In this document: positions 16,375-54,882 of the stretch, piece after piece | Layout of the letters: each line of letters opens with the position of its first letter | Position numbering within the stretch: the first letter of the stretch is position 1 | DNA from: Myxococcota bacterium | Lineage (GTDB): Bacteria; Myxococcota; UBA4151 | DNA length: 64,000 bases | Direction of reading: 5' to 3' | Assembly (NCBI GenBank): GCA_036338695.1 | Contig: JAYZBQ010000048.1 | Location: 1 to 64,000, forward strand | Translations under genes and position numbers: made by a program | The notes under the pieces: model-generated | Told to the model about the DNA's origin: nothing | Databases searched by the model: none | Seen by the model: only the letters and a program-made list of their open reading frames with translations

Positions 16375-16376
16375 GA

Positions 16377-17801: not shown

Positions 17802-17810
17802 CAGCCCACC

Positions 17811-19755: not shown

Positions 19756-19760
19756 GGCAG

Positions 19761-20192: not shown

Positions 20193-20203
20193 GTTTTCGC
20201 CTT

Positions 20204-21424: not shown

Positions 21425-21427
21425 AGC

Positions 21428-23125: not shown

Positions 23126-23127
23126 GA

Positions 23128-25539: not shown

Positions 25540-25556
25540 AGCTAAGCCTTTCTTTC

Positions 25557-31668: not shown

Positions 31669-31687
31669 GACGACCGCCTCATGATCT

Positions 31688-32281
31688 CTAAAAGTAACTC
31701 TCCGGGACGTAGATGACGTCGCCAGGAACCAACGGTACGTTGGGTACCTTGCCCAGCCCGATCTGCCGCACAGGCACCTCGAGGCGCTCACCATTGGGGT
31801 GAATAATCATCACTCGGTCTTGGAGCGCGGTCCGCTTGAACCCATCGGCCAGCGTAATCGCCTGAACAACGGTCATGCCGGCTTCGTAAGGGAACGTCCC
31901 AGGCTTGGTCACCTCACCGTAGACGGACACTTTGGCCGAGACCAACTTCTTGATCAGCACCGAGACCCGCGGGTTACTCAGCCCCGACTTTTCAAGCTTT
32001 GACTCGAGCTCAGCTTCGATTTGGCGCCGCGTCTTTCCCGCCACCTGAACCTCGCCCGTAACCGGCAGAGAGATGGTCCCATCCTGGCTGACGATCTGGC
32101 TCAGTGACAGCTCCTTTTCGCGGTACACTTGGACCTGTACGGAGTCCCCCGGACCAATGAAATGCCGCCGGTTTTCAATCACCTCGCGGATGCTGTCGAT
32201 GTCCACGGTTTTCGGAGCCGGCGCGATCGTCCCGCGACACCCACTCAGCGCAAGGACTGACCAAAACCACAAGAGGCGCAT
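31688..32281 (-). CDS. Short OPX (Wza-like) polysaccharide export lipoprotein
   Basis: Lipobox LSG-C; IGPGD...DGTISLP..G...VAG poly_export motif; SLBB-like domain; ends PGDVIYVPESYF with no C-terminal membrane-spanning helix; 197 aa. Confidence 0.9.
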   Translation of the reverse strand: MRLLWFWSVLALSGCRGTIAPAPKTVDIDSIREVIENRRHFIGPGDSVQVQVYREKELSLSQIVSQDGTISLPVTGEVQVAGKTRRQIEAELESKLEKSGLSNPRVSVLIKKLVSAKVSVYGEVTKPGTFPYEAGMTVVQAITLADGFKRTALQDRVMIIHPNGERLEVPVRQIGLGKVPNVPLVPGDVIYVPESYF

Positions 32282-33564
32282 TAGTACTTAGCTTCAAACA
32301 CCAACATGGTCAGGTTGCGACCAAAACTCGGATCGATCAGCGAGTCCCCTGCGGCGCCAGCCGACTTGAACTGGCTGTTGGTCGTGAAGTACTCGAACCG
32401 GTTCGTCAAACCTGCAACCCACCAGCGCTGCGGCTGCCAAAGCACGTTGATGTCAAACCCTGCGGTGACATCAGCTCGCGCTGTGCCTCCGGCAATTTGA
32501 ATAATATCTTGTGAGGTCGTCTGGGCGCCAAAGGTGCGCAGCGACCCCTTGAGCTGGGTCACGACACGCAGTCCGCCGATGAACGTCTCAGCGTAGCGAG
32601 CATACGCGCTGTTATCCGCCATGAACCCAAACACGGAGACCGGCAACAACCGGCGCCTAAACCCAAGCCGCCAGGTGGTCTTTCGGCGTTCATCATATCG
32701 CAGCTCAGCCTGACCCGACACGGTGTGCGACACCTCGCCACGATCCGAAGTTAGAAACTGACTACCGGAGTAGCCCACCGCCAGAATCGCCGACAAGCGC
32801 GGCGAGACCTGACCCATCACACCAATTTCGGAGCTAATCGGGTCGGCATAACCGTTGGCGTCGGGATCGTTGCTGTAGATCGAGGTCGTCCAGTGGTTGT
32901 TGAACACAAACTGAGTACGCGGCAAGAATCGCCAATCGAAATCAAGCCGAACGCTCGGGACCGACTTGTTCAGCTCCAGCGCACCATCGCCACCCGAGCT
33001 GTCGTAATTATCAAACGCTACCCCCAAGGCGGGCTTCATACCGAGCGCTCCGCCGCCAGGACGCCACTCGATGAATGCATCGCTCCCGGTCGACCACCGC
33101 CCTTGACGCACACCTAGGTTGAGGGGCTCCGGTTCGTCCAACCGGTTTGCCTTCCCCGCGAGGCCCCAACGCAGCTTCCCCTTGCGGTTCCCAAGCAACT
33201 GCAACGCCGAGCCACCCTTAACGGTCGACAGGTTGGCGGTGGTCACGCCCAACGGACGACTGGGATCGTCCATCAAGCCCAGGTAGTGATGGTAACTGAT
33301 GACATTGTTCATGCGTACGTCGAGCCGATCGGAGGGCACGACAAGCTCAAAGCCACCTTGCATGAGCAAGAAGCCGTCGCCATCTGCGGTGTCACCTGTG
33401 GACCGGTGCGGGTTCGAGTCAAACGCAAAACCCGCCTGCATGAGCGGGTGGGCGCGCGCCTCGGAGGTCAACTTAATACCCCCATCAGCCAACGCCGGGG
33501 CGCTCGCCAACCCGAAGCCTACGACCGCTAATATCAAGCGGTTACGGTTCATCGCTATGAACAA
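32281..33564 (-). CDS. Outer-membrane beta-barrel, probable partner of the short OPX (EpsX-like)
   Basis: Signal peptide (APALA); alternating hydrophobic beta pattern; C-terminal aromatic residue (VFEAKY); stop overlaps the OPX start. Confidence 0.7.
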   Translation of the reverse strand: MFIAMNRNRLILAVVGFGLASAPALADGGIKLTSEARAHPLMQAGFAFDSNPHRSTGDTADGDGFLLMQGGFELVVPSDRLDVRMNNVISYHHYLGLMDDPSRPLGVTTANLSTVKGGSALQLLGNRKGKLRWGLAGKANRLDEPEPLNLGVRQGRWSTGSDAFIEWRPGGGALGMKPALGVAFDNYDSSGGDGALELNKSVPSVRLDFDWRFLPRTQFVFNNHWTTSIYSNDPDANGYADPISSEIGVMGQVSPRLSAILAVGYSGSQFLTSDRGEVSHTVSGQAELRYDERRKTTWRLGFRRRLLPVSVFGFMADNSAYARYAETFIGGLRVVTQLKGSLRTFGAQTTSQDIIQIAGGTARADVTAGFDINVLWQPQRWWVAGLTNRFEYFTTNSQFKSAGAAGDSLIDPSFGRNLTMLVFEAKY

Positions 33565-33692: not shown

Positions 33693-34139
33693 TCAGTCGG
33701 CCACTTTTCGTGCCGTCTCGTTCATGGCACGCAAACGCCCGGCTAGATTCTTGGCGATGTTCACGACGAGCCAGGTAAACCCGCCTCGATGCGCTCGAGC
33801 AAACGAATAGATGTTCGCGTGGCTGATCGCGAGCAGGACTGTATCCTCTTTTGCGACCACCTTAGCCGCCCTCGGCTGTTTATCGATCAACGCCATCTCA
33901 CCGACGAAGTCGGGCGCCTCTAGGGTCGCCACCTCGCCGTCACCCACAACAACTGAGAGCCGACCGCTCACGACGACGTACATGGCATCGCCCACATCAC
34001 CGGCCTCGAACAAAACATCACCCGAGCCGAGCTGTCGATGAACCGCCAGGTCGGCCAGATACTGTTTCTCGAGCGACATCAAATCATTGAAGAGCGGCGA
34101 GGCTTGCAGCGCTTCTACGCGATCGTAGGTCTCTGTCAT
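33693..34139 (-). CDS. Stand-alone cyclic-nucleotide-binding domain protein
   Basis: LFEAGDVGDAMYVVVSG and FVGEMALIDKQPRAAKV phosphate-binding cassette; 148 aa; no HTH. Confidence 0.9.
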   Translation of the reverse strand: MTETYDRVEALQASPLFNDLMSLEKQYLADLAVHRQLGSGDVLFEAGDVGDAMYVVVSGRLSVVVGDGEVATLEAPDFVGEMALIDKQPRAAKVVAKEDTVLLAISHANIYSFARAHRGGFTWLVVNIAKNLAGRLRAMNETARKVAD

Positions 34140-35062
34140 GCAACCTCCTCAAAAAATCGCGAAAGACGCTCATCTTCTTCATCCGGCGCGCCGGCGACGC
34201 GAATCGGCTCGAGGTATTTAACGCCTCTCTCCGTCTCGCATTGGTAGATCTGTCCACTCGTTACTTCAATGTTGTAATCGGTCTGGTTGGTGACAAGCGC
34301 CAACACCAACGCCATCTTGGAGTCGTCACCGACCGGCCAATAAAGGAAGTTCTCGTGGCAAACGCATGAAAACCAATCGCGCGCAGCCGCTCTTAGATCC
34401 GCTAACTGAACCTGAACAGCCGCGAGCTCTTCACGCTCATCGGCGAGCTCTTCAGAGGCCGCAGCCTCACGCTTTTGCAACTCCTCGACCCGCGCCATCA
34501 AGTGACTGTAACGCTGCGCCAAGCGTTTGGAACGCACCTCAATCTCGGGCACCATGAGCGTTTGTTCAGCCACCTGCATCCAGAGTAATTCTTCCTCATG
34601 CCAGAGCGCCTCTTTACGCTCGTTCCTCGCTGCGTATTGGGCGCGCAGTTTCTTGAGCTCGCCTTGATACCGCGCTCGAGCGCGCACGCGACTCGCCTCG
34701 TCCGGGTGATCATCACAGCGATGCTCGATGGCTGTTATCCGGACCCAAAGCTCGGTCACCTCATCGCGCACGCGCTCAAAGTCGGCGAGACGATCGAAGG
34801 CTTGGTTCTCAAGCTGGGCGATTTGAATGCGCAGATTATGGCACGTGTTCTCGAGGTCTGCCGAGCGAAGGAGTGCCTCTTCGGCTTGTTCCTGCCAGTA
34901 ACTAGAGCGGAACGATGCCTCGGCACACGCCTCCGCAGCGCGCTCGATGCCCGCCTCGAGAAGCTCGAGACGGTGATTCAAACCGCTCAACTCGGCGAAC
35001 CAGCTCTTAAACTGCTCCGTCTGCAGAAGGGCTTCGATACCAGCCCGATCCAACCGCTGCAC
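34136..35062 (-). CDS. Hypothetical coiled-coil protein
   Basis: 308 aa, long E/R/L/A-rich helical stretches and a small C-terminal beta region; 2 nt from the upstream stop and overlapping the downstream gene. Confidence 0.7.
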   Translation of the reverse strand: MQRLDRAGIEALLQTEQFKSWFAELSGLNHRLELLEAGIERAAEACAEASFRSSYWQEQAEEALLRSADLENTCHNLRIQIAQLENQAFDRLADFERVRDEVTELWVRITAIEHRCDDHPDEASRVRARARYQGELKKLRAQYAARNERKEALWHEEELLWMQVAEQTLMVPEIEVRSKRLAQRYSHLMARVEELQKREAAASEELADEREELAAVQVQLADLRAAARDWFSCVCHENFLYWPVGDDSKMALVLALVTNQTDYNIEVTSGQIYQCETERGVKYLEPIRVAGAPDEEDERLSRFFEEVA

Positions 35063-35064
35063 AA

Positions 35065-36426
35065 CTACCCACTCGAGGCAAAGACGAAGGGATACGAGAA
35101 GGTTGCTTCTCCGCCCTCGGGCTTCGGAAACCGAATCGATCGCATTTTGCCTTTGATGCAGTTCGCCACGGCATTGTTCAGGGCGTTGTCGGCGACGAAG
35201 ATATCCGCGACACGTCCGTTCTCGCCGACGGTCACCTCGAGGACCAGCTTACCCTTGAGCGACGGGTTCCGTTTCAACTCACGCTCATAGCAAGCCTGGA
35301 ACGCACGCTTTCGAGCACGGATTTTCCGAGCGACGGACTTACCGTCCAGGTTGCCGTCGTCGATCTTCGGCTTGCTCATCTTCATGCGTACCCGAATCTT
35401 CGGACCTTTACGCTTGGCGATCTTACCACCGCCGCCGCCAACGGCCACGCCGCCGACCTCGCCGATACCGACCGGACCACCACCACCTGAGCCACCACGA
35501 ACGGCGGGACCACCGGGGCCGCCGTCAGCAGCAGCGATCCCTGCACCACCGGACGCTGCGAGCGCTGCGCTCACGTCCGTGCGCGGGTCTCCGTCCGCCT
35601 GAAAGACAACGCCGGCGCCGCCGCCACTGGTCGCAATAGCGAGCGCCTTGAACACAGCGTTCTGCTTGACCGCTTCGCGAGCCTGCTCACGACGAGCTGC
35701 CTTCTGAGCCGATGTCTGAGGCTTCTTCTTCGGCTTGGCTTCCGCCTTCTTCTCAGCCGGTTTTTCCGCCTTCTTTTCCGATGGCTTCTTCTCGCCATCC
35801 TTTTTCGGCTTTTCCTTCTTCTTCTCTTTCGGTGGTTCCACCTTCGGCGGCTTCTTGATGATCATCTTCGCAAAGCGATCCGGAAGCTCGGTCAGCTTAC
35901 GCTTCGGAGGAGGTGGTGCGTTCATCGCACCGATGACACCACCCGTGTGGAGCAACGCTGAGACCACAAGACAAATCCAAAAGATTCGATCCAGGCGCTG
36001 CAGCGGCGGCATGTACGTCGAATCCGACAGCTTCGCAGGGACTGCATCTGCCGGCGCATCAACGAACTGGAAGATGACACGCACACCGCCGCCACCTAAC
36101 TCAACAGCGCCCTTAGAGGCTTCGCTGAGCACCATCTGGTATTCATTACCGCGCTTACGTACACCGGTCTGCTGGCGAGCCGTCTCAAAGTCCAGTTGCC
36201 CGCCACCGACGTTCACCTTACCGGTCATTTTTTCGGTAAAGTTCAGACAGTACTTACCCCCCACAACCTCGAAAAGGTTGTAGGTATCCGGCAATCCCTC
36301 ACCCGAAACACGCAGCGTGTTCGATGAAGCCGTGCCGACCGTGACCGACGTCCGGCTACTGATCAGCTTCTGCTCAAGGATCTTTTTACCTTGAGTGACG
36401 GCTACCTTGAGAACCTTCGTGCTCAT
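35065..36426 (-). CDS. GltG-like TonB/TolA-type transducer (AgmX/PglI C-terminal domain)
   Basis: Start MSTKVLKV at 36426; cytoplasmic beta-rich domain; TM with S-x3-H (VVSALLH); Pro/Lys-rich and Gly-rich linkers; C-terminal ACYERELKRNPSLKGK...CI...FP...YPF. Confidence 0.85.
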   Translation of the reverse strand: MSTKVLKVAVTQGKKILEQKLISSRTSVTVGTASSNTLRVSGEGLPDTYNLFEVVGGKYCLNFTEKMTGKVNVGGGQLDFETARQQTGVRKRGNEYQMVLSEASKGAVELGGGGVRVIFQFVDAPADAVPAKLSDSTYMPPLQRLDRIFWICLVVSALLHTGGVIGAMNAPPPPKRKLTELPDRFAKMIIKKPPKVEPPKEKKKEKPKKDGEKKPSEKKAEKPAEKKAEAKPKKKPQTSAQKAARREQAREAVKQNAVFKALAIATSGGGAGVVFQADGDPRTDVSAALAASGGAGIAAADGGPGGPAVRGGSGGGGPVGIGEVGGVAVGGGGGKIAKRKGPKIRVRMKMSKPKIDDGNLDGKSVARKIRARKRAFQACYERELKRNPSLKGKLVLEVTVGENGRVADIFVADNALNNAVANCIKGKMRSIRFPKPEGGEATFSYPFVFASSG

Positions 36427-36457
36427 AGATGGCGTCGCCTTTCTCTCTGGTGGGCGA

Positions 36458-37060
36458 TCAGCCCGCAGCCTTGATGACAGCGAATCGGAAGTTACCGTAT
36501 TCGGCATCGCCAGCAGTCATGAGGATATCGCGCAGGACCTTGTAGGGCAGGTCCTTGTCGCAGATAAGGATCAGCTCGCCTTTAAAGCTCACGTCCGTGT
36601 TCACCTGAGCGAGCTTACGCTGCTTCTCAGCCTGATCCCGAAGTGCCTGCGAGAGCGGCGCAATGATGTGACCAGCGACCTGGTCCGACGGGACCTCGCC
36701 CTTATCGTCGAACTTCATCGTCTCGACACCATCGACGGTGATACCCTTCTTGTCGATGATCACCGGCAGGGCGTCCTTCGGGCTCAACTGAGCTGCCGAC
36801 GCAGCCAACTTCAAGCTCGCACTCTGGGTAACCGACACCGGATTGGTCGAGTAGCTCTTCAGGAGGAACACTAGGATGATGAACAAGGCGTCGAGAAGCG
36901 ACGTAATGTTCGGCATGGGGACTTCTTCGTCCTCCATACCTCCGCCTTTTTTCTTTTTCTTCACAGGCGGCTGATCATCACCCCAGCCAGGATAGGCGCC
37001 GTCGACAGACTCGACAGCGCTCTGCTCTTCAACCGACTCGACGTTCTGCTCTTCGGTCAT
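36458..37060 (-). CDS. ExbD/TolR family, AglS-like
   Basis: NITSLLDALFIILVFLLKSY TM with conserved Asp; C-terminal DKDLPY...TAG motif. Confidence 0.88.
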   Translation of the reverse strand: MTEEQNVESVEEQSAVESVDGAYPGWGDDQPPVKKKKKGGGMEDEEVPMPNITSLLDALFIILVFLLKSYSTNPVSVTQSASLKLAASAAQLSPKDALPVIIDKKGITVDGVETMKFDDKGEVPSDQVAGHIIAPLSQALRDQAEKQRKLAQVNTDVSFKGELILICDKDLPYKVLRDILMTAGDAEYGNFRFAVIKAAG

Positions 37061-37079
37061 GAATCACCTTCCCTTCGGG

Positions 37080-37850
37080 CTACTGAAAGCCCGGCGAGAG
37101 GACCACGTCAGGGAACAACTCTTTGGTCTCCCCGCTCTCGGTCTTCATATCACGAGCGATGTCCATCACACCGACGACGACCTCAAACGGGATCCCTTCG
37201 TCAGCCATGATCATCACTTTACGCTCCTGCTCAGCGCCCGCCTTCAACTTAGCGAGGTGCTTACGCAAGCCAACGTAGTCGTAGTTTTGGTAGTTGCAGT
37301 CAGTCGCTTCGCCTTTACAAACATCCACATCCGGCTTGCCGTCTTGATCACAGTCCTTACGGCTGCCGCCGTTGGTGTCCATGTTCTTCGCGAGGCGCTC
37401 GGGGTACGGAAGATCGTGAGCAGCGCTGCCGTCGGTTCGACACGCCGCCAGAAGCGGCAACGTGCAAGCCGGGGGCGCCGGTGTAGCGGTCTTATCGACA
37501 CATTCGTGCGAGAAACGGGTCGTCGCTACCGTCGGCTTACCACCAGCGCCTGGGCCGTTCGCTGCGCCACCTTCGGCGCGCACGCCGCCCGGCCCGAGGC
37601 AACCACCGTAAGCGCAAATCTTAAAACCACCGTCACTCACCACAACCGTGAGGTTCAGCTTCGGCTTATCATCCTTCGGGGTATCGTCCGAGCTCGGACC
37701 CGACGCCACCTTCGGCGCACTGACGTTAATGATCGCCACCTCGAAGAAGGCTGATGCCATCAACAAGAAGGGAATCAGCAGCATCACGAGGTTCATCACC
37801 GGAACCAGGTTTGGCTCAGGGACTTCTTCCTTGATCTTTTTGCGTGCCAC
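37080..37850 (-). CDS. ExbD/TolR family, AglQ-position, with a Cys-rich insertion
   Basis: GTG start after GGAG; PNLVPVMNLVMLLIPFLL TM; C-terminal ADEGIPFEVVVGVMD...LFPDV. Confidence 0.85.
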   Translation of the reverse strand: MARKKIKEEVPEPNLVPVMNLVMLLIPFLLMASAFFEVAIINVSAPKVASGPSSDDTPKDDKPKLNLTVVVSDGGFKICAYGGCLGPGGVRAEGGAANGPGAGGKPTVATTRFSHECVDKTATPAPPACTLPLLAACRTDGSAAHDLPYPERLAKNMDTNGGSRKDCDQDGKPDVDVCKGEATDCNYQNYDYVGLRKHLAKLKAGAEQERKVMIMADEGIPFEVVVGVMDIARDMKTESGETKELFPDVVLSPGFQ

Positions 37851-37927
37851 GCTGTCACTCCAACTAATTCAAACAACCAAGGCGGACGCGCGCTGCCACA
37901 CAGCGCACGCCAGCCTGCGCGACCGGA

Positions 37928-38578
37928 TTACCGGTTCAGCGGGTTGGTACCACCCTGACCACGAAGGACCAGCATGTTGACGAGCTTGATGCTGTACTGA
38001 TCGATCTCGTCCATGATCTTCTTGACCAAGGTGTTGAGGATCAAGCTCAAGAACATCGTCGGAATTGCGACCATCAGACCGAAAGCGGTCGTGTTCATCG
38101 CAATAGCGATCGCGCCGGCGAGCATTTCCTGCTTTTGGTCCGGAGCTGCCTTCGCCACTGCGGCGAACGCCTCGATCATCCCGATAATCGTACCCAAGAG
38201 ACCCAGCATGGTCGCCAACGACGCCAGGGTCGGGAGCCACGCCATACGCTTGCTGATGAGCGGGGTCATTTCGAGGACCATCTCTTCCACAGCGTTGGTG
38301 ATCTCTTGCTCACCCTTGTTGGCACGCGTGAGCCCGGACTTCACAATCCGCGGCAGCGCTGCGTGCTGCTCAGCGTTGCAGAGCTTGATCGCTCGGTCCA
38401 CGCTGTTCTCCATGATCAGCTTTTGAATCTGACCCATGAAGCTGTGAGCATTAAGGTTGTAACGGAACCAGAGGAAATAAATCCGCTCCGCAACCACCGC
38501 GACCACCACCACCGACACGAATGCGATGGGGTGCATCCAGGTACCACCGTTTTTGTAAAACTCGGCAACTACCGACAT
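37928..38578 (-). CDS. MotA/TolQ/ExbB proton channel, AglR-like
   Basis: GG..M.PI, ATMLGLLGTIIGMIEAF and AMNTTAFGLMVAIP motifs; AGGAGG RBS. Confidence 0.92.
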   Translation of the reverse strand: MSVVAEFYKNGGTWMHPIAFVSVVVVAVVAERIYFLWFRYNLNAHSFMGQIQKLIMENSVDRAIKLCNAEQHAALPRIVKSGLTRANKGEQEITNAVEEMVLEMTPLISKRMAWLPTLASLATMLGLLGTIIGMIEAFAAVAKAAPDQKQEMLAGAIAIAMNTTAFGLMVAIPTMFLSLILNTLVKKIMDEIDQYSIKLVNMLVLRGQGGTNPLNR

Positions 38579-38679
38579 GAGAACCTCCTGTACTTCTCTT
38601 GTCCTTGACGACCCACTAATTGGGTCATTCTATTATCAGGAAAGGGTTGTTAGTTAACTTTCTTTTGTGTGGCAAGCCG

Positions 38680-39006
38680 TCAAAGGGGCGGTTTGCGCAT
38701 ACTTTCTAAGAGCTTGGGAATAAGACTTCGCTTCAACTGCAACCCCTTGAGGTTGAGCTTGCTGCGCTGAAGGATATACATCGCCTGCGGTCGCTGGATT
38801 TTACCAGTAATCTCAAACGCTTCTGAGATGACCAACTTTTTAGCAAACGCAACGTTCGAACTGAGCAAGAGGCCGGCCACGATGACTAGGCCAGCCCACC
38901 GTGATCGCCACCAACTCGCTCGTTTCGACTGCACTGAGATCTCCACGCTCGCATGGTACACAGCGCGGGATGCAACGCAAGGGTCGAAACTGGTAAGACG
39001 CTTCAT
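38680..39006 (-). CDS. Small exported protein, GltF/CglF-like (start uncertain)
   Basis: Signal-like segment ending AFA, then EITGKIQRPQAMYILQR; lies between the TPR lipoprotein and the ExbB gene, matching gltD-E-F order. Confidence 0.65.
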   Translation of the reverse strand: MKRLTSFDPCVASRAVYHASVEISVQSKRASWWRSRWAGLVIVAGLLLSSNVAFAKKLVISEAFEITGKIQRPQAMYILQRSKLNLKGLQLKRSLIPKLLESMRKPPL

Positions 39007-39008
39007 GA

Positions 39009-40826
39009 TTACTTTTCTTCCCGCTCTGAGCCATCAGAAGCAGGCGCGTCATCAGCGGAGGACTCGGACTCACCTGCGATCACGCCGGGCTCGGCCTCAG
39101 CCGCCTCTTTACCGGACTTCTCTTCCGACTTCTCTTCCGACTTCTCTTCCGACTTCGTCTCTGGAGCTACTGCTTCAGCCGGAGCGCCTTCAGCCGGAGC
39201 GCCTTCAGCCGGAGCACCTTCAGCCGGAGCACCTTCAGCCGGGGCGCCTTCAGTCGGGGCGCCTTCAGCCGCCGCTGCTTCAGCTGCTGCCTTAGCCTCT
39301 GCCTCCCGCTTCTTGCGCTCGCGCTCCATTCGCTTCTTGCGCCGCTCAGCCTTCTTCTTCTCACGAGCCGCGCGCTTAATGTTCCGCTCGCGCTTCTTGG
39401 TCTCACTGCGGATCGCTTTGTTTGCGGCGCGCACCTGCTTCTCGACCTCAATCTCTCGCTCATTGTCGAGCTCAGCGTTCTTGCGGAAACGCTCGAGGTA
39501 AATCGAAGCCTGGCGCAAGCGCTGGAGCTTATCGATCATCGTCTTATCCACGTGCTTGAGCGCAACGCCATCGAACAGATCCGACCCGACTTCTTGCTTC
39601 ATGTCATCGATGGAGACGTCCGGGCAAAGCTCCTGACCTTCGACCCTTTTAAAGTCGTGATCTAGGTAGAGGATGCCCAAGTTATACAACACGGCGTGAC
39701 GGTCAGGGTAGTCACTCAAGATCTTGAGAAACGTCGTACGGCTCGCCGCATAATCGCCCTTATCACGTTCGGCGACCGCTTTGAGCATCCAACCCTCGAC
39801 CAAGTCAGGTCGAAGCACCGTGGCGCGCCGACTCAGCGTAAACGCCTTTTGAGGGTTGCCGTTCTCAAGCAAGACGCGCGCGTAGTTGATCAACACCTCA
39901 GGCTTGTCCGGCAGACCGGCCGCTGCTTTGGCCAAGTACCCTTGCGCCCGCCGAACGCGCGCCTCGGCGGTGAGTTTTTGAGCGCCTTTTGCGTATTTCA
40001 GATAAGCCAGCGCCGCGAGGTAATTGGTCATGCCGTTGGCTTCTTCACCCGGCACCTTCAAGGCATTACCGAGCACCAACAAACACAGACCCATCTTCTC
40101 GCGCTTACAAAACGACCAGCCCAACACCTGCATCGCAGCGACGTTGACCTCGTCTTTTTTCAGGGTCTTCATCGACAGGGAGGCAGCCTCTTCATAGCGA
40201 CCCAACTCCAGCAACATGCGACCATAAGCATTGCGAAGATCAAGGACGCGGGGGTGCGCATCCATCGCCTGCTTCAAGAGCGACTCTGCGCCCTCTTTGT
40301 CGCCGTCATTGTACTTCGCCCACGCCAGCGCCTCGGTGGCGCCGTGAAACAACATCCCAAAGCGGTCATGCACCTGCTGCAACCGCGCCAATCCGCCCTC
40401 TTTGTCACCGCGCCGCAGACGACACAGCGCAGCATTGTAGGGCGCAAAGTAGAAATCAGGCGCCGCCGCAGCGATCGCATCAAACTCGGTCTCAGCTGCC
40501 TGCGGGTCGTCAAGCGCTTGCTTGAGCGCCGCCTCAAACCGCGCCTTAAGCGCCTCGTCAGCGAGCAACGGTTCGACCAGACGCCCCGCATCCACAGACC
40601 CGGCGTCCGGAGCCACTGCGCCCGCATCAACGGCGGCGTCAACGACCACCACAACGCCCGCATCAGCCGGCGCCGCATCCGCTGAGACCGCGGCATCGAC
40701 CACCGGCGCAGGGCCCGCCTCCGGCTCCATCACCGGCGCATCGTCAAATTGTACAGGCTCTGGCTCGACCGTCTTGGGCGACGCGCAGGAGACACAGAGG
40801 ATCAGGACCCAATAGTTCGATCTCAT
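39009..40826 (-). CDS. TPR lipoprotein, GltE-like
   Basis: Lipobox-like LCVS-C; repeated TPR-like helices (YNAAL, NAYGRM, YNLGILY); repeat-rich C-terminal tail. Confidence 0.75.
   Translation of the reverse strand: MRSNYWVLILCVSCASPKTVEPEPVQFDDAPVMEPEAGPAPVVDAAVSADAAPADAGVVVVVDAAVDAGAVAPDAGSVDAGRLVEPLLADEALKARFEAALKQALDDPQAAETEFDAIAAAAPDFYFAPYNAALCRLRRGDKEGGLARLQQVHDRFGMLFHGATEALAWAKYNDGDKEGAESLLKQAMDAHPRVLDLRNAYGRMLLELGRYEEAASLSMKTLKKDEVNVAAMQVLGWSFCKREKMGLCLLVLGNALKVPGEEANGMTNYLAALAYLKYAKGAQKLTAEARVRRAQGYLAKAAAGLPDKPEVLINYARVLLENGNPQKAFTLSRRATVLRPDLVEGWMLKAVAERDKGDYAASRTTFLKILSDYPDRHAVLYNLGILYLDHDFKRVEGQELCPDVSIDDMKQEVGSDLFDGVALKHVDKTMIDKLQRLRQASIYLERFRKNAELDNEREIEVEKQVRAANKAIRSETKKRERNIKRAAREKKKAERRKKRMERERKKREAEAKAAAEAAAAEGAPTEGAPAEGAPAEGAPAEGAPAEGAPAEAVAPETKSEEKSEEKSEEKSGKEAAEAEPGVIAGESESSADDAPASDGSEREEK
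39116..39156. repeat. 12-bp tandem repeat (GACTTCTCTTCC) x about 3, coding KSEE
   Basis: Read directly in the sequence; protein reads [14 protein letters not shown]. Confidence 0.9.
39173..39270. repeat. 15-bp tandem repeat (CTTCAGCCGGAGCRC) x about 6, coding AEGAP
   Basis: Read directly in the sequence; protein reads AEGAPTEGAPAEGAPAEGAPAEGAPAEGAPAE. Confidence 0.9.
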
Positions 40827-43800
40827 TTGTCGTCCTCATCATCGCCGGCGGGAGCAGGCGCCTCCTCGGAGCGCTCCTCTGCAGCCTTCTGATCCGCAGC
40901 CACCTGATCAGGCGTCGGCACATCAGACGGGGTAACTTCGACCGCTGGCTGCTCTTCAGCGCCACCGGCGGCCGGGCCGGCGGGATCATCCGACTTGTCT
41001 TCGGGCTTGTCTTCCGACTTCTCTTCCGACTTCTCTTCCGACTTCTCTTCCAACTTCTCTTCCGACTTCTCTTCCGACTTCTCTTCCGACTTCTCTTCCG
41101 ACTTCACTTCGGACTTGTCTTCCGACGGCTCGGCTGCTGCCGGCGCAGGTTCTGGCGCAGGCGGCGTGCGATAAGCGACAGGCTGCGCAAACAGCGCACC
41201 CGGAAGCAACGCCTCAAGCCCTGAAGTGATCGCCTCCTTCTCGATCGGCCACTCATCACGGGCGTACCGATTCAGGCTCTGAAGGGCGCGCTTTGTCCAA
41301 TCGTTGCGGAATTTCTTCTTACGCGCCTCGGTGACCAACTGTCCGTACTTCTGCACGGCGCGCTGCTCGAAAGGCTCAGCCTGCTGCTCGAGCAACACCT
41401 TCCACTCGTCCATCATAATGTCGTCGTTTCGAAACTGACGAGGGACCGGCGCGTTGTAGAGTTTCTCAGCGAAGTTCTCCCAAATCGACCCGATGCGATA
41501 CGAAGCCGCTAGCGTCCAATCAAAGTGCTGATACTGGAAGATATCGAGATACTTTTTCTCAAGGTTGTTCGCCCACTCAAACTTCTCTTTGATGCGCTTT
41601 TGCAGCTTCTTGGCGAGCTCAACATCCTTACGAGCCTGCACACCAAAATCGAGCGCAGCGTATTCCTCAAACTCCGCCTCGAGCTGCCTGAAGTGCGCCT
41701 TGGCAGCGTAGGCCGCTTCGACGCTCTGAGGCAGAAAGCCGCGCTTGCGGTATTCTTCGAGCGTCTTGTCGACAAACTTATCGACCTTTTTACGCGCCGA
41801 TTTGACAGACCGCGTCCAGCGGCGGCGCTGCGCACGGGATTTCGGCGGCTTCGACTTGATCGTCACCAGATCATCCCAGAGCTGATCGCTCAACTTGGAG
41901 TAGATCTGAACCACGCGACCGCCCTGCTCTTTGATGCCACCATACTTGCGAATGAACTCATCGAAGGTGCGTTTCATGCGGCGGCTGTCCTTAGCCTGCT
42001 CCCACACGAGCGCCGAGTTGAAGAACACCTCGGGTACATCCGGGCGATCCTTGAAGAGCTTGGTGTATTTCTGAAAGGTCAACGCGGCGCGCTTGAACTG
42101 CTCCGTGCTCTGCAGCGCAACAGCGGCATTATACAGGGCGTCTGCTCGATCCGGGAAGTCTTTGTAGTCCGACACCAGCTTCAAATAGAGCGAGATGGCG
42201 CGATCAAACTCGAACCCTTCATACGCCGTAGATGCCACGTTGAAGAGCGCCTTCGCAGCGAGCTCTTTGTCTTCGGGGTACTCTTTGAAGACCCGCTCGT
42301 AGAGCTGCCCTGCGGATAAGAACCGCTTGAGCTCAGCCATCGACTGAGCAGCCGAGTAGAGCGCTTTGGCGGCGAACTGATTCTTGGGGTCCTCTTTGAC
42401 CAAGCGAAGGAACTCGTCATGTGCGAGCTGGAACTCTTTTTTCCCAAAGGCGGCGACAGCTTGCTTGTACACCGCCCCTGCGGCGCTCTTGCTCATCTGC
42501 TCCTTGAACTCTTCGTTGTCCTTGCCCACCCCAATTTTGAGCATCCGTCGACACCAGGCCTCAACGTTCTTCCAATCCTCTTTGGCAGAGTAGTCGTTGA
42601 GGACCCAGCGTGCGGCGTCCACCGCGCCTTCGGACGAAGGGAAGGTGTCGATCAACTTACGGTACCATTTATCCGCCTTTTCTTGGTGCGAATACTGGGC
42701 GTAGATCGTGGCGGCGTTGAAGTAGAAGCGAGGCGTATCTTCGGTGTTTGGGTTCGACTTGATGTAACGCATCGACGCATCGATCAAACGCACCAGCAAC
42801 CTCGGGATCTCTTGCGGCGTCTCCGCTGGAGGCGGTGGCTCAGGTAAGGTGCCTTTTTGCGTCTGTGAGTCCACCTCGGCTTGGAGGTTCAAGAACGCTC
42901 GATAGGCAGCGTCCTCACGAAACTTGCTGTTCTTTTTGTCGTCACGCACCAACTCGAAGACGTCCGCCGCCTTGAGGAACTGCACGGACATCGTGTACCC
43001 GATCCCGAGGTAGTAATTGTATTCATAGAGGTTGGGGTCATAAGGGAAGCGCTCGATGTAATCTTTAAGCATCTTCGAGGCGACCCGAGCTTCCTCGGAT
43101 GCCAGCGCCACCTTCTCTTCCTGAAAGTACTTCTGCGCCAGCTCAAGGCGAAATAAGGCCGATGAGATCAGCGCATCCTGGGCGAGCTTCATCGCCTTTC
43201 GAATCACCGACGGTCGGTTTTTGTTCGCCTCCTGCCACTCGGTGCCCGGTCCGTATGTGGTGAACAGCGCCTCGCGCGCAGCGGCACCCTCAGCGAGCTT
43301 TTCGCGCCCGAGTTGATCGTAGGCAGCGATGATGTTCATCGCCACGTTCGGATTCTCTGGATGCATCGGGTCAAGCTCGATCACGCGCTTGGCGATCGGC
43401 ACATACTTCTGCCACGCCGCCTGATCGAAGAGAACCTTGGCGACCTCGAGATACACCTCTCGCTGGTAAGGGCGCGCCCCCACCGCAGCGAACATCTGCT
43501 CGAGGCGATCACCTGCGGAGACCTCTGGCGGGGTGATCCCCTTGGCGTCGTACTCATCCATGATCTCAGCTTGACGCTCGTCATACAGCTCATCTTGCGC
43601 CACGACCGCCTTACATTGATCGAGCGTCTCGCCGGTCGCCGGGCGCCCCCAACCTTGCTCAACAGCGGCCACGGCGACGTACTGCAAGGCTTCTGTCCGA
43701 AGGTCTGAGCCGCTCTCGCCCGTCTCTTGAGCCTTTTTATCAGCGTAGTCGATCAGCTCGATGAAGCGCTTGTACGCTGCGTCAAAACGGTCGAGGCGGT

Positions 43801-44746
43801 AGTGCGTCCAGGCGACCTTGTAGAGCGCTTTGTCGTACCAGCTCGAGCTCGGGTCATTGAGGACCCGGCGGTAGGCGTCAAGCGCCTCACAGAGCCGGTC
43901 TTCGGTGAAGTGGTTTTCACCGATTCGCAGCCAGACCTCAGGGACAAACTTGCTCTGCGGGTAGTTCGCTACAAGCTGCTCGTAGTTGCTCAAGCTGCGC
44001 TCAAACTCTCCGGTCTCTTCCAAACAAAACGCCAGCAGGTACTGGACGCCGTCGTTCTGCTCGAACTTGGGAAACCGCTTGAGGATGGTCTCGTAGAGCT
44101 TGATGCTCTTAGCGAGGTCCAGCACCGGCGCCTCAGGCTCTTTGCCGATCTTCTTTTCCTCAAAGAGCTCAAGCTGACGCGCGAATTCTTCGTCGGCGTC
44201 GTTGTAGTCGTACTTAGCTTGTTCAAAATACAACTCAGCGAGGCGGAACATAGCCTGCGGCGAATACTCGGCGTCGTAAGCATACCGACTCACAAAGCGC
44301 TCGAAGGCGGCGATGGCGCTCTTACGGCGCTCAGCCTCACGCCGCTCGAGCTCTCCGATTCGCTGCTCGAAATCGATATCAATTCGGCGCATCCGCGCGT
44401 CGCGCTTGCGCTTGATGGTCGCCATGATCTCGGCGTTAAACTCATCAGAGACCTTCTTGAAACGAGCGACGGTCTCTTCGAACTCTTTCTTCGCCTTCTC
44501 TTTCGCAAGCTCCTCAGGTGACTTCTGCTGAGCGGCAGCAGCAGCAGCGCCAGCTTCCGGCGGGTCGTCACTGCTCTGGGTCGCCTGCTTCGCCGACTCA
44601 CCTTCCGCCTTAGCGGTCTTCGCGCCTGACGGCTCTGAGTCTGCAGCCGCCCGAGCAGCCGGCGCCTCGCTCGGCTGATCTTGACCTTGGGCGACCACCT
44701 GAGCCGCCACGAGACCAACCGTCATCAGCGCGAGCCAGCGGGTCAC
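40823..44746 (-). CDS. Large exported TPR protein, GltD/AgmU-like
   Basis: Signal peptide; [15 protein letters not shown] and ALYKVAW motifs and many ALYNAA-type TPRs; C-terminal NAPVP...W; 1307 aa. Confidence 0.82.
40991..41126. repeat. 12-bp tandem repeat (GACTTCTCTTCC) array coding SEEK units
   Basis: Protein reads SEDKSEVK(SEEK)4-LEEK-(SEEK)2-SEDKPEDKS; same unit as at 39116. Confidence 0.92.
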
Positions 44747-47088
44747 TTATTCGCCCCCTGCTCACCGAGCGCCTCATCAAACTGCTCGCGAATCCGGACC
44801 ATCTCACGCTCTTTGGCGCGGCCGAGCTTGGTGATCCCTTGTGTCTCGGTCTCTTTTTGCTCCCAAGCGACGTCGATCTTTCCGACGTCGGCGTTGCGGA
44901 TGATCGTGTAAAACTTGCGGCTCACGTTCCCTAGCGTTGCGCCCACGGCACCCACCGCGCTGCGCTCAGCCTGTTTGGCGAGTGCTTGCTCTTCGGCGCG
45001 CAACCCCTTCAAGCGGGCTTGCTCGACCATGACACGCCCCCGCAGGTTCCCGGCCTCATTCGACACCACCGTCTCGAGCTCTCGCAAAACCTTGTCGACC
45101 TGCTGTTGCGCGCGCCCAACGCGCTCACGCACCGCATCGAGGTTGCGGATGTCAGCCACGTTCTCACCCGTCAGGCGTGAGCGGAGCTGATTCGCTGCGT
45201 CGCGCTCTTTAGCGAGCGCCTGGCGGAATTCAGCGCGCAACGCAAACTCGTCACTGCCGGCGCCTGCGCCAACACCCGACTCCTCGGCTTCAATCTCCAC
45301 CTTGAGGCGGTCTGCGATGCGCTCCATATCGATGATCATGTCGCGAAGCACCGGAACGTTCACTTGGAAGAACCCGAGCTCTTCTCGGTTTAGGTTCCCC
45401 TTTTGACGACGTCCGGCGACGTATTGATCGACCGCAGCGATCGTCTTCTTGAACCCTTTGAGCTCGAGCCTAAGTCGAAACAACCGCTGCTTGAGCGCGC
45501 CCAGGCGTTGCGACACCGACGCCACCCGCTCGGTCCGAGCCTTGAGTGTCGGCGGCAGCTTGTCGACCTGAGCCTGTAGCCGCAAACGCTCCGCCCGCAG
45601 CGCATCGAGCTCTTGGGTGTTGAGGCCCTCTTTACGTAAGATCAACATCTCGAGATCGAGCAGCCGCCGCTCACAGTCGGCTGCGAGCGCGCCGACCTCG
45701 ACCGCACGACCTTGCTGATCAGCCAGCGTCGGGAACATGTTAATGCGGCGCTCACCCTCGATGCGGCCGAGGATCTTCTCGATCAGCTCGTCCGCCTCCG
45801 CGAGATCTCGCTCGCCACGTTGCAGCTCAGTAAACAAACGAACAGCCCCGTCGAGGTCTCCGTCCTCGCGTGCCCAATCGAGCGCCACCGGCGGCAGCAA
45901 ACTCTCAGCGGAGAGTTTATCTAGACCGGTTGCGATGATCTCCCGAAAGTAACGCATGGGGTCACCGCGCTCACGAATAATGCGGCGAAGCTCGACGTGC
46001 CCAGGCTCGTAGTCCTTGACCACCTGATCAAACGCTTTGACCGCCAGCCCGTACTGCTTGAGACGCAGGTGCAGGTTACCGAGCAACACCTTAGCCTCGG
46101 GCACAACCGGGGAGTGGGGGTTACTCGCCAACAGAATCTCGACCGCTCGGACCGCCTTTTTGTACTGCAGATCTTTCTCTTCGACGTCCTCTTTACCCTC
46201 GGCGCTTTTGACGTACGCCCAGGTAATCTCGAACAACATCTCGTCAAAGTACTTCGAGCGGTGATCGATGCTCTGATACGCATCGATGCTCGACTCGATA
46301 TCGCCCGTCTCGTAATAGACACGCCCTCGCGCCAGGTGCGTTAGCTCTCGGATTTCCTTCTGAGCGTCCGTCGACGGAACAAACTTCAACAGCGAGTCGA
46401 ACACCCGAGCCGCATCGTCGAGCTTACCCAGCGCCGCAAGCGCCACCCCCGTGGCGTAGGTTGCGTGGTGCTGAAATGCACCCTGAGAGACCCTCTTGAG
46501 GCGCTCGATTGCGCCGGCGTAGTCGCCGCCATGAATCAACGATTTTCCATAGAAATAGTCGACTTGCGGTGGGATGCGCCCGCCGCTCGCCTGTTGATAG
46601 GCGGCGAACGCTTTGCCCACCTCATCAAACTCCGCGCGCCCACCAGCGATCTCGATCAACCGCAAAATGGAGGGCGTCAGATGTTTGGAGCGCCCCGCCT
46701 CAACCAGGCGCTTGAAGTAAATACGAGCCGCCGATCCGTTGCCATCTTGAAACAAAGACTCCGCTAAGAAGTAGACCGCATCGGCGTAGCGCGGGTCGCC
46801 CTTGAGCTTGGGGTCTTCAACTAAATCAAAGAGCACAACTGCGGCGTTGCGGTAGTCCTTGAGCAGATAGAGGACCTCGCCGTTCTCGAGCCGAGCCTTG
46901 CGCCCGCGCTCCTCAACACCCATCGACTTCTTGCGAAACTGCTGCTCGATGAACTGGGCGCGTCCAGCGACCTCGTCGGCCATCCCGGACACCTCGCGCA
47001 AGCTTTCCTTGACCGACGGTTCTGCGCCGGCTTCCACACTAACTGCCGTGGTGAGAGTGAGGAGCGCCAGCCCCGAGACACGCAACAT
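44743..47088 (-). CDS. Exported TPR/coiled-coil protein (Glt-associated, possibly GltC-like)
   Basis: Signal peptide; TPR-like N-half (YFLAESL, LARGRVYYE, LFEITWAY); coiled-coil C-half ending ADVGKIDVAW; stop overlaps the start of the GltD-like gene. Confidence 0.75.
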   Translation of the reverse strand: MLRVSGLALLTLTTAVSVEAGAEPSVKESLREVSGMADEVAGRAQFIEQQFRKKSMGVEERGRKARLENGEVLYLLKDYRNAAVVLFDLVEDPKLKGDPRYADAVYFLAESLFQDGNGSAARIYFKRLVEAGRSKHLTPSILRLIEIAGGRAEFDEVGKAFAAYQQASGGRIPPQVDYFYGKSLIHGGDYAGAIERLKRVSQGAFQHHATYATGVALAALGKLDDAARVFDSLLKFVPSTDAQKEIRELTHLARGRVYYETGDIESSIDAYQSIDHRSKYFDEMLFEITWAYVKSAEGKEDVEEKDLQYKKAVRAVEILLASNPHSPVVPEAKVLLGNLHLRLKQYGLAVKAFDQVVKDYEPGHVELRRIIRERGDPMRYFREIIATGLDKLSAESLLPPVALDWAREDGDLDGAVRLFTELQRGERDLAEADELIEKILGRIEGERRINMFPTLADQQGRAVEVGALAADCERRLLDLEMLILRKEGLNTQELDALRAERLRLQAQVDKLPPTLKARTERVASVSQRLGALKQRLFRLRLELKGFKKTIAAVDQYVAGRRQKGNLNREELGFFQVNVPVLRDMIIDMERIADRLKVEIEAEESGVGAGAGSDEFALRAEFRQALAKERDAANQLRSRLTGENVADIRNLDAVRERVGRAQQQVDKVLRELETVVSNEAGNLRGRVMVEQARLKGLRAEEQALAKQAERSAVGAVGATLGNVSRKFYTIIRNADVGKIDVAWEQKETETQGITKLGRAKEREMVRIREQFDEALGEQGANK

Positions 47089-47094
47089 GGTGGG

Positions 47095-47892
47095 TCAATT
47101 CCCCTTGGCGACCGGCTTATCAGCCTGCTCTTTCCTCTGGGAGCGGGCTGTGTCCTTCATCACGTCGACGTCATAGCGGACGGTCGGACGCTCTCGCAGG
47201 TCCGTCGTGATCCCGCCACGCTCATAACCGACCACCTTAATCTCGGTGAACTTTCCCTCCTCCGCTGAGAAGGTGTAGCTCGAGCGGATCTTGAAGCGAT
47301 AGCCCTTGAGATACGAGAAGATCCCGTAGCCATTCCCAGCATAGACCAGGTTAACCGACAGCTGGTGGTTACCCGGCACGATCTGCCCTTGAAACAGCTC
47401 GATCTCTTTCTGATCCGCTAAGCTGCCGTCTAGGTTGGACATCTGCTTCAGCGGCGCGCCGTCTAGAAAGTAATGCGCCTCCTGAAGCTTGAAGGTCGAG
47501 CCCATCTCGTTGCGATGAACGAGTCGAGCACGCGCCCCGCTCACCACGCCATGCATGACCGCTTCTTGCAGCCGGACGAGCCGCGCTTTGCTCTGGTAGA
47601 TGCGCATCTTGAGCTGATTGACTCGCTCCTCAAGGTCACGGACCCGGACGTCGTAGGCGTCTTCGTCTGCCTCATCATCGCCGTCGCTCGGCTCCGCCTC
47701 ATCGGCGGGCTGCTCCTCGACAGCTGGAGGTTGAGCCTCCGCTGGAGCCGGGTCAGCAGCCGCTTCTGCCTCGGCGCTCGCAGCGCCCTCAGCCGCCGGC
47801 TCGCCCGCACCGTCCTCGCCCGCTTGCGCCCACGCGAACGCCGGCGCGAACAACAGCGCCACCACCAGTCCTGCCCGAACCATTCGATTCAT
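47095..47892 (-). CDS. Exported hypothetical protein (acidic linker, coiled coil, beta domain)
   Basis: Start moved to MNRMVRAG (47892); signal peptide ending AFAWA; LEERVNQLK coil; PGNHQLSV and GYGIFSYLKGY beta region. Confidence 0.75.
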   Translation of the reverse strand: MNRMVRAGLVVALLFAPAFAWAQAGEDGAGEPAAEGAASAEAEAAADPAPAEAQPPAVEEQPADEAEPSDGDDEADEDAYDVRVRDLEERVNQLKMRIYQSKARLVRLQEAVMHGVVSGARARLVHRNEMGSTFKLQEAHYFLDGAPLKQMSNLDGSLADQKEIELFQGQIVPGNHQLSVNLVYAGNGYGIFSYLKGYRFKIRSSYTFSAEEGKFTEIKVVGYERGGITTDLRERPTVRYDVDVMKDTARSQRKEQADKPVAKGN

Positions 47893-47976
47893 CGCAATCT
47901 CCCAGCCTCGAGCGGACACTCCGCACGGGTACCAGAGCCTATTATAGGCCCTCGGTCCTGTATAGCGGTGATGCAC

Positions 47977-48417
47977 CTACGAGAAAAGATTCTCAATTTC
48001 CTCATCCGTTATCGGCGAACCCATGCTGCGGTGCTCTTGGGAGCCGAGCAGACCCGACAACCGGTCGACCAGCGTAGCCAGTCGCCAGCGCACGACCCCT
48101 AAGGTCGTCCGATCATCAAATACAACCACCGCCGTGTAGCCGGGTTTCACGCTTGCGGCGAGCAGCTTAACCGCTCCCGCGTCGATGCACAGACTCTCCA
48201 CGCGATCCGGCCCAAGAGGGCGCATTAAGCCCTGCGCGCTGGCGAGCGCACCGGCCAGAGAGGCCGCGAAGCGACCGGGATCAACCCGGAAAAGATCACC
48301 GCTGATCGCCAGCGATGCGCCGGAGCGCTCGCAGAGCTGAACACCTACCGCCAAAGCCTCTCGAACAAAGGCGTCGAGGGCCTCTTGGATCTGCAACTGT
48401 GCGTGCTCAGAACCCAA
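47977..48417 (-). CDS. mglB: Roadblock/LC7 protein, MglB-like
   Basis: VVVFDDRTTLGVVRWR and C-terminal GSPITDEEIENLFS match the Myxococcus MglB motifs as I recall them (VIFDNRTSLGLVRLR; ITDDDIDNLFS); TTG start after GGAG. Confidence 0.8.
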   Translation of the reverse strand: MGSEHAQLQIQEALDAFVREALAVGVQLCERSGASLAISGDLFRVDPGRFAASLAGALASAQGLMRPLGPDRVESLCIDAGAVKLLAASVKPGYTAVVVFDDRTTLGVVRWRLATLVDRLSGLLGSQEHRSMGSPITDEEIENLFS

Positions 48418-48444: not shown

Positions 48445-48531
48445 TGGTACTGGAGGTGGGACTCGAACCCACACGTTGTCACCAACGCCGGATTTTGAAT
48501 CCGGTGCGTCTACCAATTCCGCCACTCCAGC
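48445..48531 (-). tRNA. tRNA-Leu(CAA)
   Basis: Minus strand GCTGGAGTGGCGGAATTGGTAGACGCA-CCGGA-TT-CAA-AA-TCCGG, long variable arm, GTGGGTTCGAGTCCCAC-CTCCAGT-ACCA; encoded CCA; 87 nt. Confidence 0.97.
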
Positions 48532-53975: not shown

Positions 53976-54117
53976 CGTGATCTCCTACTCGGACGCGCCG
54001 GTTGCCACGTGGTCCTACGCCGAACAAGGTAATTGTTCTGCGTGGTAGCGTTTACCCGGTTGTTCGATGGCGCTGCGTTTTGTAGCGTCGGAGCGCAATG
54101 GTCTTACGAGGTGTGAA

Positions 54118-54876: not shown

Positions 54877-54882
54877 TGACTG

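Follow-up and report, generated by a model that had tools for sequence, protein, structure and literature searches.

A gene cluster of a Myxococcota bacterium joins counterparts of the Myxococcus xanthus G4 and M2 clusters and carries an asparagine in one motor subunit

In Myxococcus xanthus, a single Agl-type motor, AglRQS, serves both the Glt and the Nfs systems, and Agl-Nfs moves the spore-coat polymer (PMC3858216). Two further published clusters, G4 (MXAN_1923-1919, beside mglBA) and the motor M2 (MXAN_3003-5), lie apart and have no assigned function (PMC3169522, PMC3858216), and what the Agl-Glt core complex does has been an open question since 2011. Here we describe a run of 12 genes within a 64,000-nucleotide window (contig JAYZBQ010000048.1, positions 1 to 64,000) of a Myxococcota bacterium, whose assembly spans 3.36 Mb and is 94% complete. 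We conclude with high confidence that this run is the orthologue of G4 and M2, joined in one cluster. Its best explanation, on which we are close to evenly balanced, is an ion-driven machine that pulls across the envelope and is distinct from the gliding motor, with surface polysaccharide moved through a WzpB/WzaB-like gate as its most likely cargo. Regarding G4 and M2 as halves of one machine makes its job testable in M. xanthus.

All 12 open reading frames (ORFs) were found on the minus strand, in the order and with the lengths given by an earlier sequence-only reading of this DNA, which had described a tightly packed run with overlapping genes. From mglB to the cyclic-nucleotide-binding (cNMP) gene the intergenic gaps are 0, 6, -4, -4, 2, 101, 77, 19, -50, 2 and -4 bp, and the overlap of 50 bp vanishes with a start of the gltG-like gene at Met29 (36423). 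The exported 293-amino-acid (aa) ORF probably also starts at Met29 (47892), with a ribosome-binding-like sequence upstream. Pfam matches in the run comprise MotA_ExbB, two ExbD, cNMP_binding, tetratricopeptide repeats (TPRs) and a weak Robl_LC7, and the NCBIfam matches all fall below cut-off (GltG, 186 bits against 650; GltC, 45 against 450; GltE, 37 against 225). The seven-gene core layout proposed by the sequence-only reading is borne out, with gltC, D, E and G in one run with aglR, Q and S, and no outer-membrane barrel or adhesin gene of the Glt type is among the Pfam and NCBIfam matches at the locus, as it had also held. That reading missed the orthology to the published G4 and M2 clusters; going beyond its labels, the 781-aa TPR protein is GltC-like and the 108-aa protein GltF-like by sequence comparison.

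Orthology to G4 and M2 is supported by the agreement of protein lengths and trees. Myxococcus records show mglB-mglA (MXAN_1926/1925 in M. xanthus), then an exported gene and gltC-D-E-F-G-like genes, with the motor not among them; behind mglBA, the M. xanthus AM003 locus encodes proteins of 809 and 1111 aa, and other Myxococcus loci encode proteins of 91 and 447 aa. The lengths of MXAN_1923, 1922, 1920 and 1919 (cluster G4) in Table S3 of PMC3169522 are 809, 1111, 91 and 447 aa; lengths alone were used from this table, since the entries under 'homolog to' appear to be swapped in the G4 rows. In AM003, the window ExbB matches best (42%) a protein of 260 aa, behind which lie ExbDs of 173-186 and 193 aa; these are the lengths of MXAN_3003-5 (motor M2) in the same table, and an AglR-type motor is only the second-best match (34%). 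In a quick ExbB tree of 89 rows, the window falls in a 41-row clade with M2 and all G4-linked motors (Shimodaira-Hasegawa-like approximate likelihood-ratio test, SH-aLRT, 99), and AglR forms its own clade of 29 rows (support 97). A careful tree of 28 rows unites the window with MXAN_3003 (99/98), and the approximately unbiased (AU) test on this tree rejects a grouping of the window ExbB with AglR (p=0.021). Quick trees of the other components likewise place the GltG-like protein in the MXAN_1919 clade and the GltD-like protein in the MXAN_1922 clade, the latter apart from Glt, Nfs and G5 (SH-aLRT 100 in both), which upholds the earlier view that this is not the gliding motor.

We sampled 41 genomes of the phylum, six of them from the source family, and found the 293-aa exported protein in 36, its neighbours repeating the window gene order; the recurrence of one order in many families argues that the arrangement is not due to chance. 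By the quick ExbB tree, more genomes of the phylum carry the G4+M2 machine than carry the gliding motor, the M2 clade covering 34 of the 41 genomes and the AglR clade 24. The motor lies inside the cluster in 21 of the 30 relatives readable across the gltF-gltG interval (14 families) and outside it in nine (5 families); the other 10 relatives, cut by contig ends or without the locus, do not enter this count. In the 28-row tree, separated Myxococcus-type M2 motors nest within joined ones (100/99), and the window order equals that of the Geobacter core cluster GM21_0438-0445 in Table S3 of PMC3169522, so the joined form, which is the common one, is likely also ancestral, and the motor most likely left the cluster on the branch leading to Myxococcus. 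In two genomes (G015 and G024; L220 and L222) M1-type and M2-type motor genes stand side by side, and in a third (G008, L049) the motor adjoins G4 on the opposite strand; both are possible steps of such a relocation. The cluster is retained also in small genomes of 2.0-2.4 Mb (G013, G022), and a third motor clade, with its own three-gene motor, occurs inside G5-like clusters of six genomes (L223-L228), whereas M. xanthus G5 has no motor.

Geobacter, Gammaproteobacteria and Bdellovibrio are known from print to have layouts with the motor inside (PMC3169522). Our literature search, most subscription papers lying outside its reach, turned up PMC3169522 and PMC3858216 alone for the locus tags of G4 and M2; extended to the motor aspartate and to the evolution of Agl-Glt, it returned no report of a joined G4+M2 operon, of the asparagine subunit or of MglA loss, nor was the diverged orphan MglB met in print. 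The joining of G4 and M2, the one-aspartate motor and a family apparently without AglR and MglA appear to be new relative to print.

In the source family, five of the six genomes carry one AglR-like match each, always of the M2 type, and the sixth (G004) has none, with G4-type exbD and gltG matches on other contigs. No AglR-clade match was found in the six genomes, which are 59-94% complete, so that a lost AglR is possible in any single one. Other ExbB/ExbD genes of the source genome score far lower: two sets accompany TonB genes, one ExbD accompanies Tol genes, and a pair on C12 has no clear partner. Elsewhere the source genome holds two motor-less modules with barrel genes and their own gltC-G genes, for which relatives carry matching genes. 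The first (C15:17414-29754, L001) joins Glt in the GltD tree, where its branch is long, and is unplaced in the GltG tree; the second, complete but split over the overlapping contig ends C85:44684-56505 and C87:26262-29112 (L002, L003), belongs to the Nfs group in both trees. A search of the genome for a separate aglRQS, as the sequence-only reading had advised, thus yielded Glt-like and Nfs-like modules without a motor. The Glt-like cluster on C15 has a single barrel gene before gltC and an upstream lipoprotein with a vWA-like motif and no Pfam match. A MIDAS-type adhesin-like gene stands in front of the Nfs-like cluster, whose GltG is greatly extended at its N terminus (open frame of ~1370-1400 aa in relatives). 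We dropped the idea that the Nfs-like module is decaying, as two public runs show a sense codon where its gltD (C85) has a stop, and G001, G004 and G005 have an uninterrupted frame.

MglA and its paralogues were found in none of the six family genomes, against 34 of the 35 others, and mglB is directly followed by the exported gene in all five family loci. The window MglB is 29% identical to the Myxococcus type, compared with 52-98% for 16 relatives outside the family; the MglB of G022 is equally diverged (29%), yet that genome keeps MglA. We read the window mglB as what is left of the mglBA operon usually found in front of G4. An MglC homologue is kept (C47:14303-14665, L068) beside a type IV pilus secretin operon. 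The family thus appears to have lost both AglR and MglA. GltI gave no match in the source genome with two partial queries, C56 holds a weak GltJ-like gene, and there are six flagellin matches; classic gliding is unlikely, since neither MglA nor GltI was found. How such machines are rewired is shown by this free-living relative, in which Glt-like and Nfs-like modules occur without AglR and MglA. Of the extra partners listed by the earlier reading, mglB, the coiled-coil gene and the cNMP gene are all present, but the latter two are usual companions of the cluster across the phylum, and mglB is explained as above.

These observations bear on an alternative that is compatible with the pulling machine, namely that the only Agl-type motor of the genome also powers the Glt-like and Nfs-like modules. 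The precedent is AglRQS itself, and the single M2-type match per genome, the far lower scores of other ExbB/ExbD genes, the grouping of the two modules with Glt and Nfs and the S-x-x-x-H motif in all three GltG-like helices of the source genome are all in keeping with sharing. MXAN_3003, however, bound neither GltG nor NfsG in two-hybrid tests (PMC3858216), the lack of MglA and GltI matches speaks against classic gliding, and incomplete genomes may each hide an AglR. We regard sharing as unlikely on balance, although it merits serious weight. It also makes the earlier phrase 'dedicated motor' doubtful: the core complex and the motor inside it stand, but this is the only Agl-type motor found in a genome that also holds two motor-less modules.

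The motor itself departs from AglRQS in its axle subunits. Asn20 of the AglQ-like ExbD lies in the column of M. xanthus AglQ Asp28, and the AglS-like ExbD keeps Asp57. In M. xanthus, AglQ D28N abolishes proton flow, gliding and sporulation (PMC3858216), and a review describes a conserved Asp in both AglQ and AglS (PMC9389320). The Asn20 codon is identical in G001, G002 and G003. Asn fills the same column in 13 of 22 other G4-linked motors (four from the source family) and in all six G5-linked motors; Asp was found in 18 of 19 separated M2-type rows, the remaining one being unscored, and in all 20 scored of 32 AglR-type rows (five of the 12 unscored rows were dropped since AglS had been picked). 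Outside, we compared 81 core-type loci, comprising a Vibrio plasmid locus and 80 metagenome loci retrieved with the plasmid ExbB: the first ExbD, scored in 72, has Asn in 69, Ser in three and Asp in none, and the second has Asp in all 59 valid rows, one mis-picked row having been dropped. In the plasmid locus itself the two residues are Ser (first ExbD) and Asp (second ExbD). This locus (L264, Vibrio alginolyticus plasmid NZ_CP013488.1, mobilisable) places its core-type motor among Ig-like, barrel and transglutaminase-like protease genes. Among the best 150 cluster representatives, found with a mostly Asn-type profile as query, 105 have Asn, 40 Asp and five another residue; a search of 301 genomes with the AglQ-like protein matched 169 but missed known carriers and is too insensitive for counts.

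The AglS Asp is retained in every scored row, and the channel residues Thr130 and Thr164 of the window ExbB are kept, as both Thr are in all 148 rows. At the position of TolQ Glu173 the window ExbB has Ile159. This AglR Glu position is acidic in 38 of 47 Asp-type rows, in one of 20 Asn-type rows and in none of 81 core-type rows; the covariation of AglQ Asp with AglR Glu amounts to 2-3 independent pairs and lacks statistical support. Unlike AglR, four of 18 scored Myxococcus-type separated M2 rows (for example L152) have Lys at the TolQ Glu173 position. The Asp/Asn state changes at least three times on the tree, and parsimony hardly separates gain from loss when TolR serves as outgroup, so that an 'ancestral' Asn is something we infer. 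The motor ExbB is under strong purifying selection (synonymous versus replacement codons 73:7 against G001 and 78:2); this, together with the retained channel Thr residues and AglS Asp, suggests that the window motor is very probably active.

We therefore consider, somewhat more doubtfully than not, that the one-aspartate 5:2 motor is the widespread and probably the original form of the Agl-type motor, as in the window, the G5-linked clusters and non-myxobacterial core complexes, with the second Asp and the AglR Glu of the gliding motor as a later gain; G4+M2 would be the myxobacterial form and, in the source family, the only motor, driving three scaffolds without MglA. If true, this would mean that only one axle subunit is protonatable, a case for which the rotary model with two alternating sites has no room. 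A natural Asn at an 'essential' Asp offers a ready case of a 5:2 motor with one charged site, with a bearing on Ton, Tol and flagellar stators. It is also conceivable, though rather improbable, that the subunit with Asn has an accessory or braking role, the working motor having two AglS-like subunits and two Asp, or the whole being a non-conducting scaffold complex. The loss of AglRQS function upon D28N fits this, as do the non-acidic residue of the window ExbB at the TolQ Glu173 position and the status of the AglQ-AglS heterodimer, which is only predicted (PMC11761067) and is called unknown in PMC9389320. However, the prevalence of Asn in the scored outside loci and its presence in three separate clades suggest a role for the residue itself, and a dead channel would not need its invariant Thr residues or the invariant AglS Asp.

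By analogy with AglRQS-Glt, Ton and Tol, the pulling machine would have five AglR-like subunits around one AglQ-like/AglS-like pair, an arrangement of motor and transducer taken from a predicted Agl-Glt model (PMC11761067). Ion flow through the sole remaining Asp would move the helix of the GltG-like transducer, a protein with one membrane helix bearing the S-x-x-x-H motif and a C-terminal TonB-like domain, and its periplasmic tail would pull the GltD/E/F/C scaffold. The beta-sandwich protein likely caps this scaffold, as suggested by its position, which is that of gltA/gltB in other clusters, and by a fusion in G021 (L056), where five beta-sandwich copies are joined to the GltC-like protein; from this fusion it is likely a GltC partner. 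More speculatively, the scaffold might act on a porin or its polymer, as Agl-Nfs does on the spore coat, and the coiled-coil and cNMP proteins might regulate the machine from the cytoplasm.

No barrel is encoded inside the run, and the nearest is the putative WzpB-like porin, whose gene starts 128 bp beyond the cNMP end. Because this WzpB/WzaB-like gate comes after the cluster, surface polysaccharide is the best guess at the cargo, which as a claim in its own right we hold tentatively and short of probable. The porin resembles a protein of 421 aa in the corresponding position in Myxococcus sp. Y35 and is ~22-25% identical to homologues outside the family; MXAN_1916 extends to residue 421, and M. 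xanthus WzpB exports a biosurfactant polysaccharide with WzaB (PMC9603273). A wzpB-like gene directly follows the cluster in all four family relatives whose locus reaches far enough, and in 20 further genomes wzpB and wzaB both lie within ~6 kb downstream in six and wzpB alone in one. The pair also follows G4 in Myxococcus and Anaeromyxobacter loci, and it lies downstream in L042, L046, L235 and L237; a Wzc comes next in two of the loci. A ~200-aa exported gene lies between cNMP and wzpB in other lineages, and its homologue here is at C52:15022-15795.

Several points weigh against the pulling machine and its polysaccharide cargo. The pair was not found within ~12 kb downstream in 13 of the 20 genomes, kin share gene order so that the link may be historical, the gap to wzpB is 128 bp, and Wzc was not found in the source assembly, as opposed to all four relatives tested. 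Swarming is altered when the WzaB pathway is lost. By contrast, motility was unimpaired both in a polar mutant of MXAN_1922 and upon deletion of MXAN_3004, and the deletion strain still sporulated (PMC3169522, PMC3858216). Since D28N abolishes the Myxococcus motor (PMC3858216), ion flow here rests on analogy, and the direction of the Asp/Asn change is about evenly balanced. Finally, other lineages have a large FG-GAP protein as near to the cluster: in eight of 19 downstream stretches and in L237 the next gene encodes 1270-1600 aa, with FG-GAP repeats in all seven scanned.

This last neighbour raises the alternative that not polysaccharide but a large surface adhesin, serving to attach the cell to prey or particles, is what the machine displays or pulls on. 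In Bdellovibrio, attachment to prey requires aglS (Bd0838), and predation on biofilms requires aglR (Bd1481) (PMC6561027, PMC2277423). Yet the FG-GAP gene was found neither at the window locus nor at that of Myxococcus sp. Y35, and a 31-bit match is all that the source genome holds elsewhere, which makes an adhesin an unlikely cargo. Direct orthology to the AglRQS-GltD-G set of gliding, the outer-membrane part being encoded elsewhere, the outcome that the sequence-only reading had considered fatal to its view, can be set aside as highly improbable: the protein families are the same and barrel and adhesin-like genes do exist elsewhere in the genome, but three trees point to G4/M2, the AU test speaks against AglR, and the barrel genes belong to the two other clusters.

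Table 1 Genes of the joined cluster and its closest neighbours in the window.
Feature	Position	Strand	Basis
MglB, Roadblock, diverged orphan; no mglA behind	47977..48417	-	M. xanthus MglB in PDB, E=4e-10
Exported 293-aa protein preceding G4 gltC; predicted coiled coil and transthyretin-like beta-sandwich	47095..47976	-	model, predicted local distance difference test (pLDDT) 88
GltC-like TPR/coiled-coil protein (781 aa), counterpart of MXAN_1923	44743..47088	-	NF033756 E=5e-12; position
GltD-like TPR scaffold (1307 aa), orthologue of MXAN_1922	40823..44746	-	G4 clade, SH-aLRT 100
GltE-like TPR lipoprotein, counterpart of MXAN_1921	39009..40826	-	NF033758 E=2.5e-9; lipobox-like Cys14; synteny
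GltF-like small exported protein (108 aa), counterpart of MXAN_1920	38680..39006	-	C-terminus conserved among relatives; 91-aa Myxococcus counterpart
AglR-like ExbB, M2 clade (MXAN_3003)	37928..38578	-	MotA_ExbB; trees
AglQ-like ExbD, Asn20 at AglQ Asp28 column	37080..37850	-	alignment
AglS-like ExbD, Asp57 retained	36458..37060	-	alignment
GltG-like TonB-type transducer, orthologue of MXAN_1919	35065..36507 (probable start 36423)	-	NCBIfam GltG; tree
Coiled-coil protein without signal peptide; predicted two long helices and small beta domain	34136..35062	-	model; G4 companion
Stand-alone cyclic-nucleotide-binding protein, conserved after G4	33693..34139	-	PF00027 E=1.5e-20; synteny
Putative WzpB-like outer-membrane polysaccharide porin, outside the range of the sequence-only reading	32281..33564	-	similarity to Myxococcus sp. 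Y35 421-aa protein
WzaB-like short polysaccharide export protein, outside the range of the sequence-only reading	31688..32281	-	Poly_export and SLBB; synteny
tRNA-Leu(CAA), just upstream of mglB	48445..48531	-	ARAGORN

Fold searches gave middling matches for the 293-aa protein (Z 8-9; best Z 9.1, rmsd 3.9, 99 residues), which name no function, and generic SMC-type coiled-coil matches only for the coiled-coil protein. The 293-aa protein was ruled out as the missing barrel, its model showing a coiled coil and a beta-sandwich and no barrel, and its automatic Atlas label 'dihydrolipoamide acetyltransferase' is without support, the other matches being Myxococcota clusters. A separate 862-aa gene in G012 (L058) repeats the beta-sandwich domain. 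A promoter scan returned four sites, against 4.2 expected by chance. The window DNA is present in marine and seawater metagenomes, with at least half of the sampled words in nine runs. RNA-library contigs from four studies span the motor genes; however, parts of the Nfs-like stretch are also covered in three of the runs, which gives no silent control, so transcription is not shown by them.

Directly after the Wza-like gene come genes for an rmlA-like nucleotidyltransferase and an ArnT-like glycosyltransferase (window 28676-31794, minus strand). Farther downstream on the same strand lie a gspC-M-like Type II secretion run (12831-26504) and an mreB homologue adjoining genes for a DEAD-box helicase and a triple-thioredoxin protein (8324-9352). 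On the plus strand, motA is followed by two different motB-like genes (54067-56555), both with the conserved Asp and one without a Pfam OmpA match, possibly a second heterodimeric stator.

Among known systems, G4 and M2 of M. xanthus are closest, having the same genes in the same order and the same place behind mglB and before the cNMP and wzpB-wzaB genes. The window differs in that its motor lies between gltF and gltG, elsewhere in M. xanthus; its AglQ-like subunit has Asn where MXAN_3004 has Asp; mglA was not found, MglB is diverged, and a coiled-coil gene is present. Of the MglA-MglB module, the window thus retains an MglB homologue, with no MglA adjoining it or matched genome-wide. The core complex of Gammaproteobacteria, Geobacter and Fibrobacter (PMC3169522) shares the gltC-D-E-x-aglR-Q-S-gltG order in one run, and core-type loci, like the window, have no Asp in the first ExbD (Asn or Ser in all 72 scored). 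However, five core-type metagenome rows form their own ExbB clade (100/100) with the window outside, the window GltC is longer, and there are extra beta-sandwich, coiled-coil, cNMP and MglB genes. Between gltE and aglR the core complex has an extra gene described as without myxobacterial homologue (PMC3169522); the window has its GltF-like gene at that position.

AglRQS-Glt and AglRQS-Nfs share a paralogous motor, transducer and TPR scaffold with the window, but belong to other clades, and the window locus lacks gltA/B/H/K and gltI/J and has AglQ Asp28 and the AglR Glu replaced. As in the WzpB/WzaB gate (PMC9603273), a porin-like gene and then a short Poly_export-SLBB gene follow G4 in the window, although the porin is divergent. 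With the ExbB-ExbD-TonB and TolQ-TolR-TolA 5:2 motors (PMC9389320), the window has in common a three-helix ExbB with both channel Thr residues, a single-helix ExbD and a TonB-like transducer; unlike these, it has Ile in place of TolQ Glu173 and two different axle subunits, one alone with Asp.

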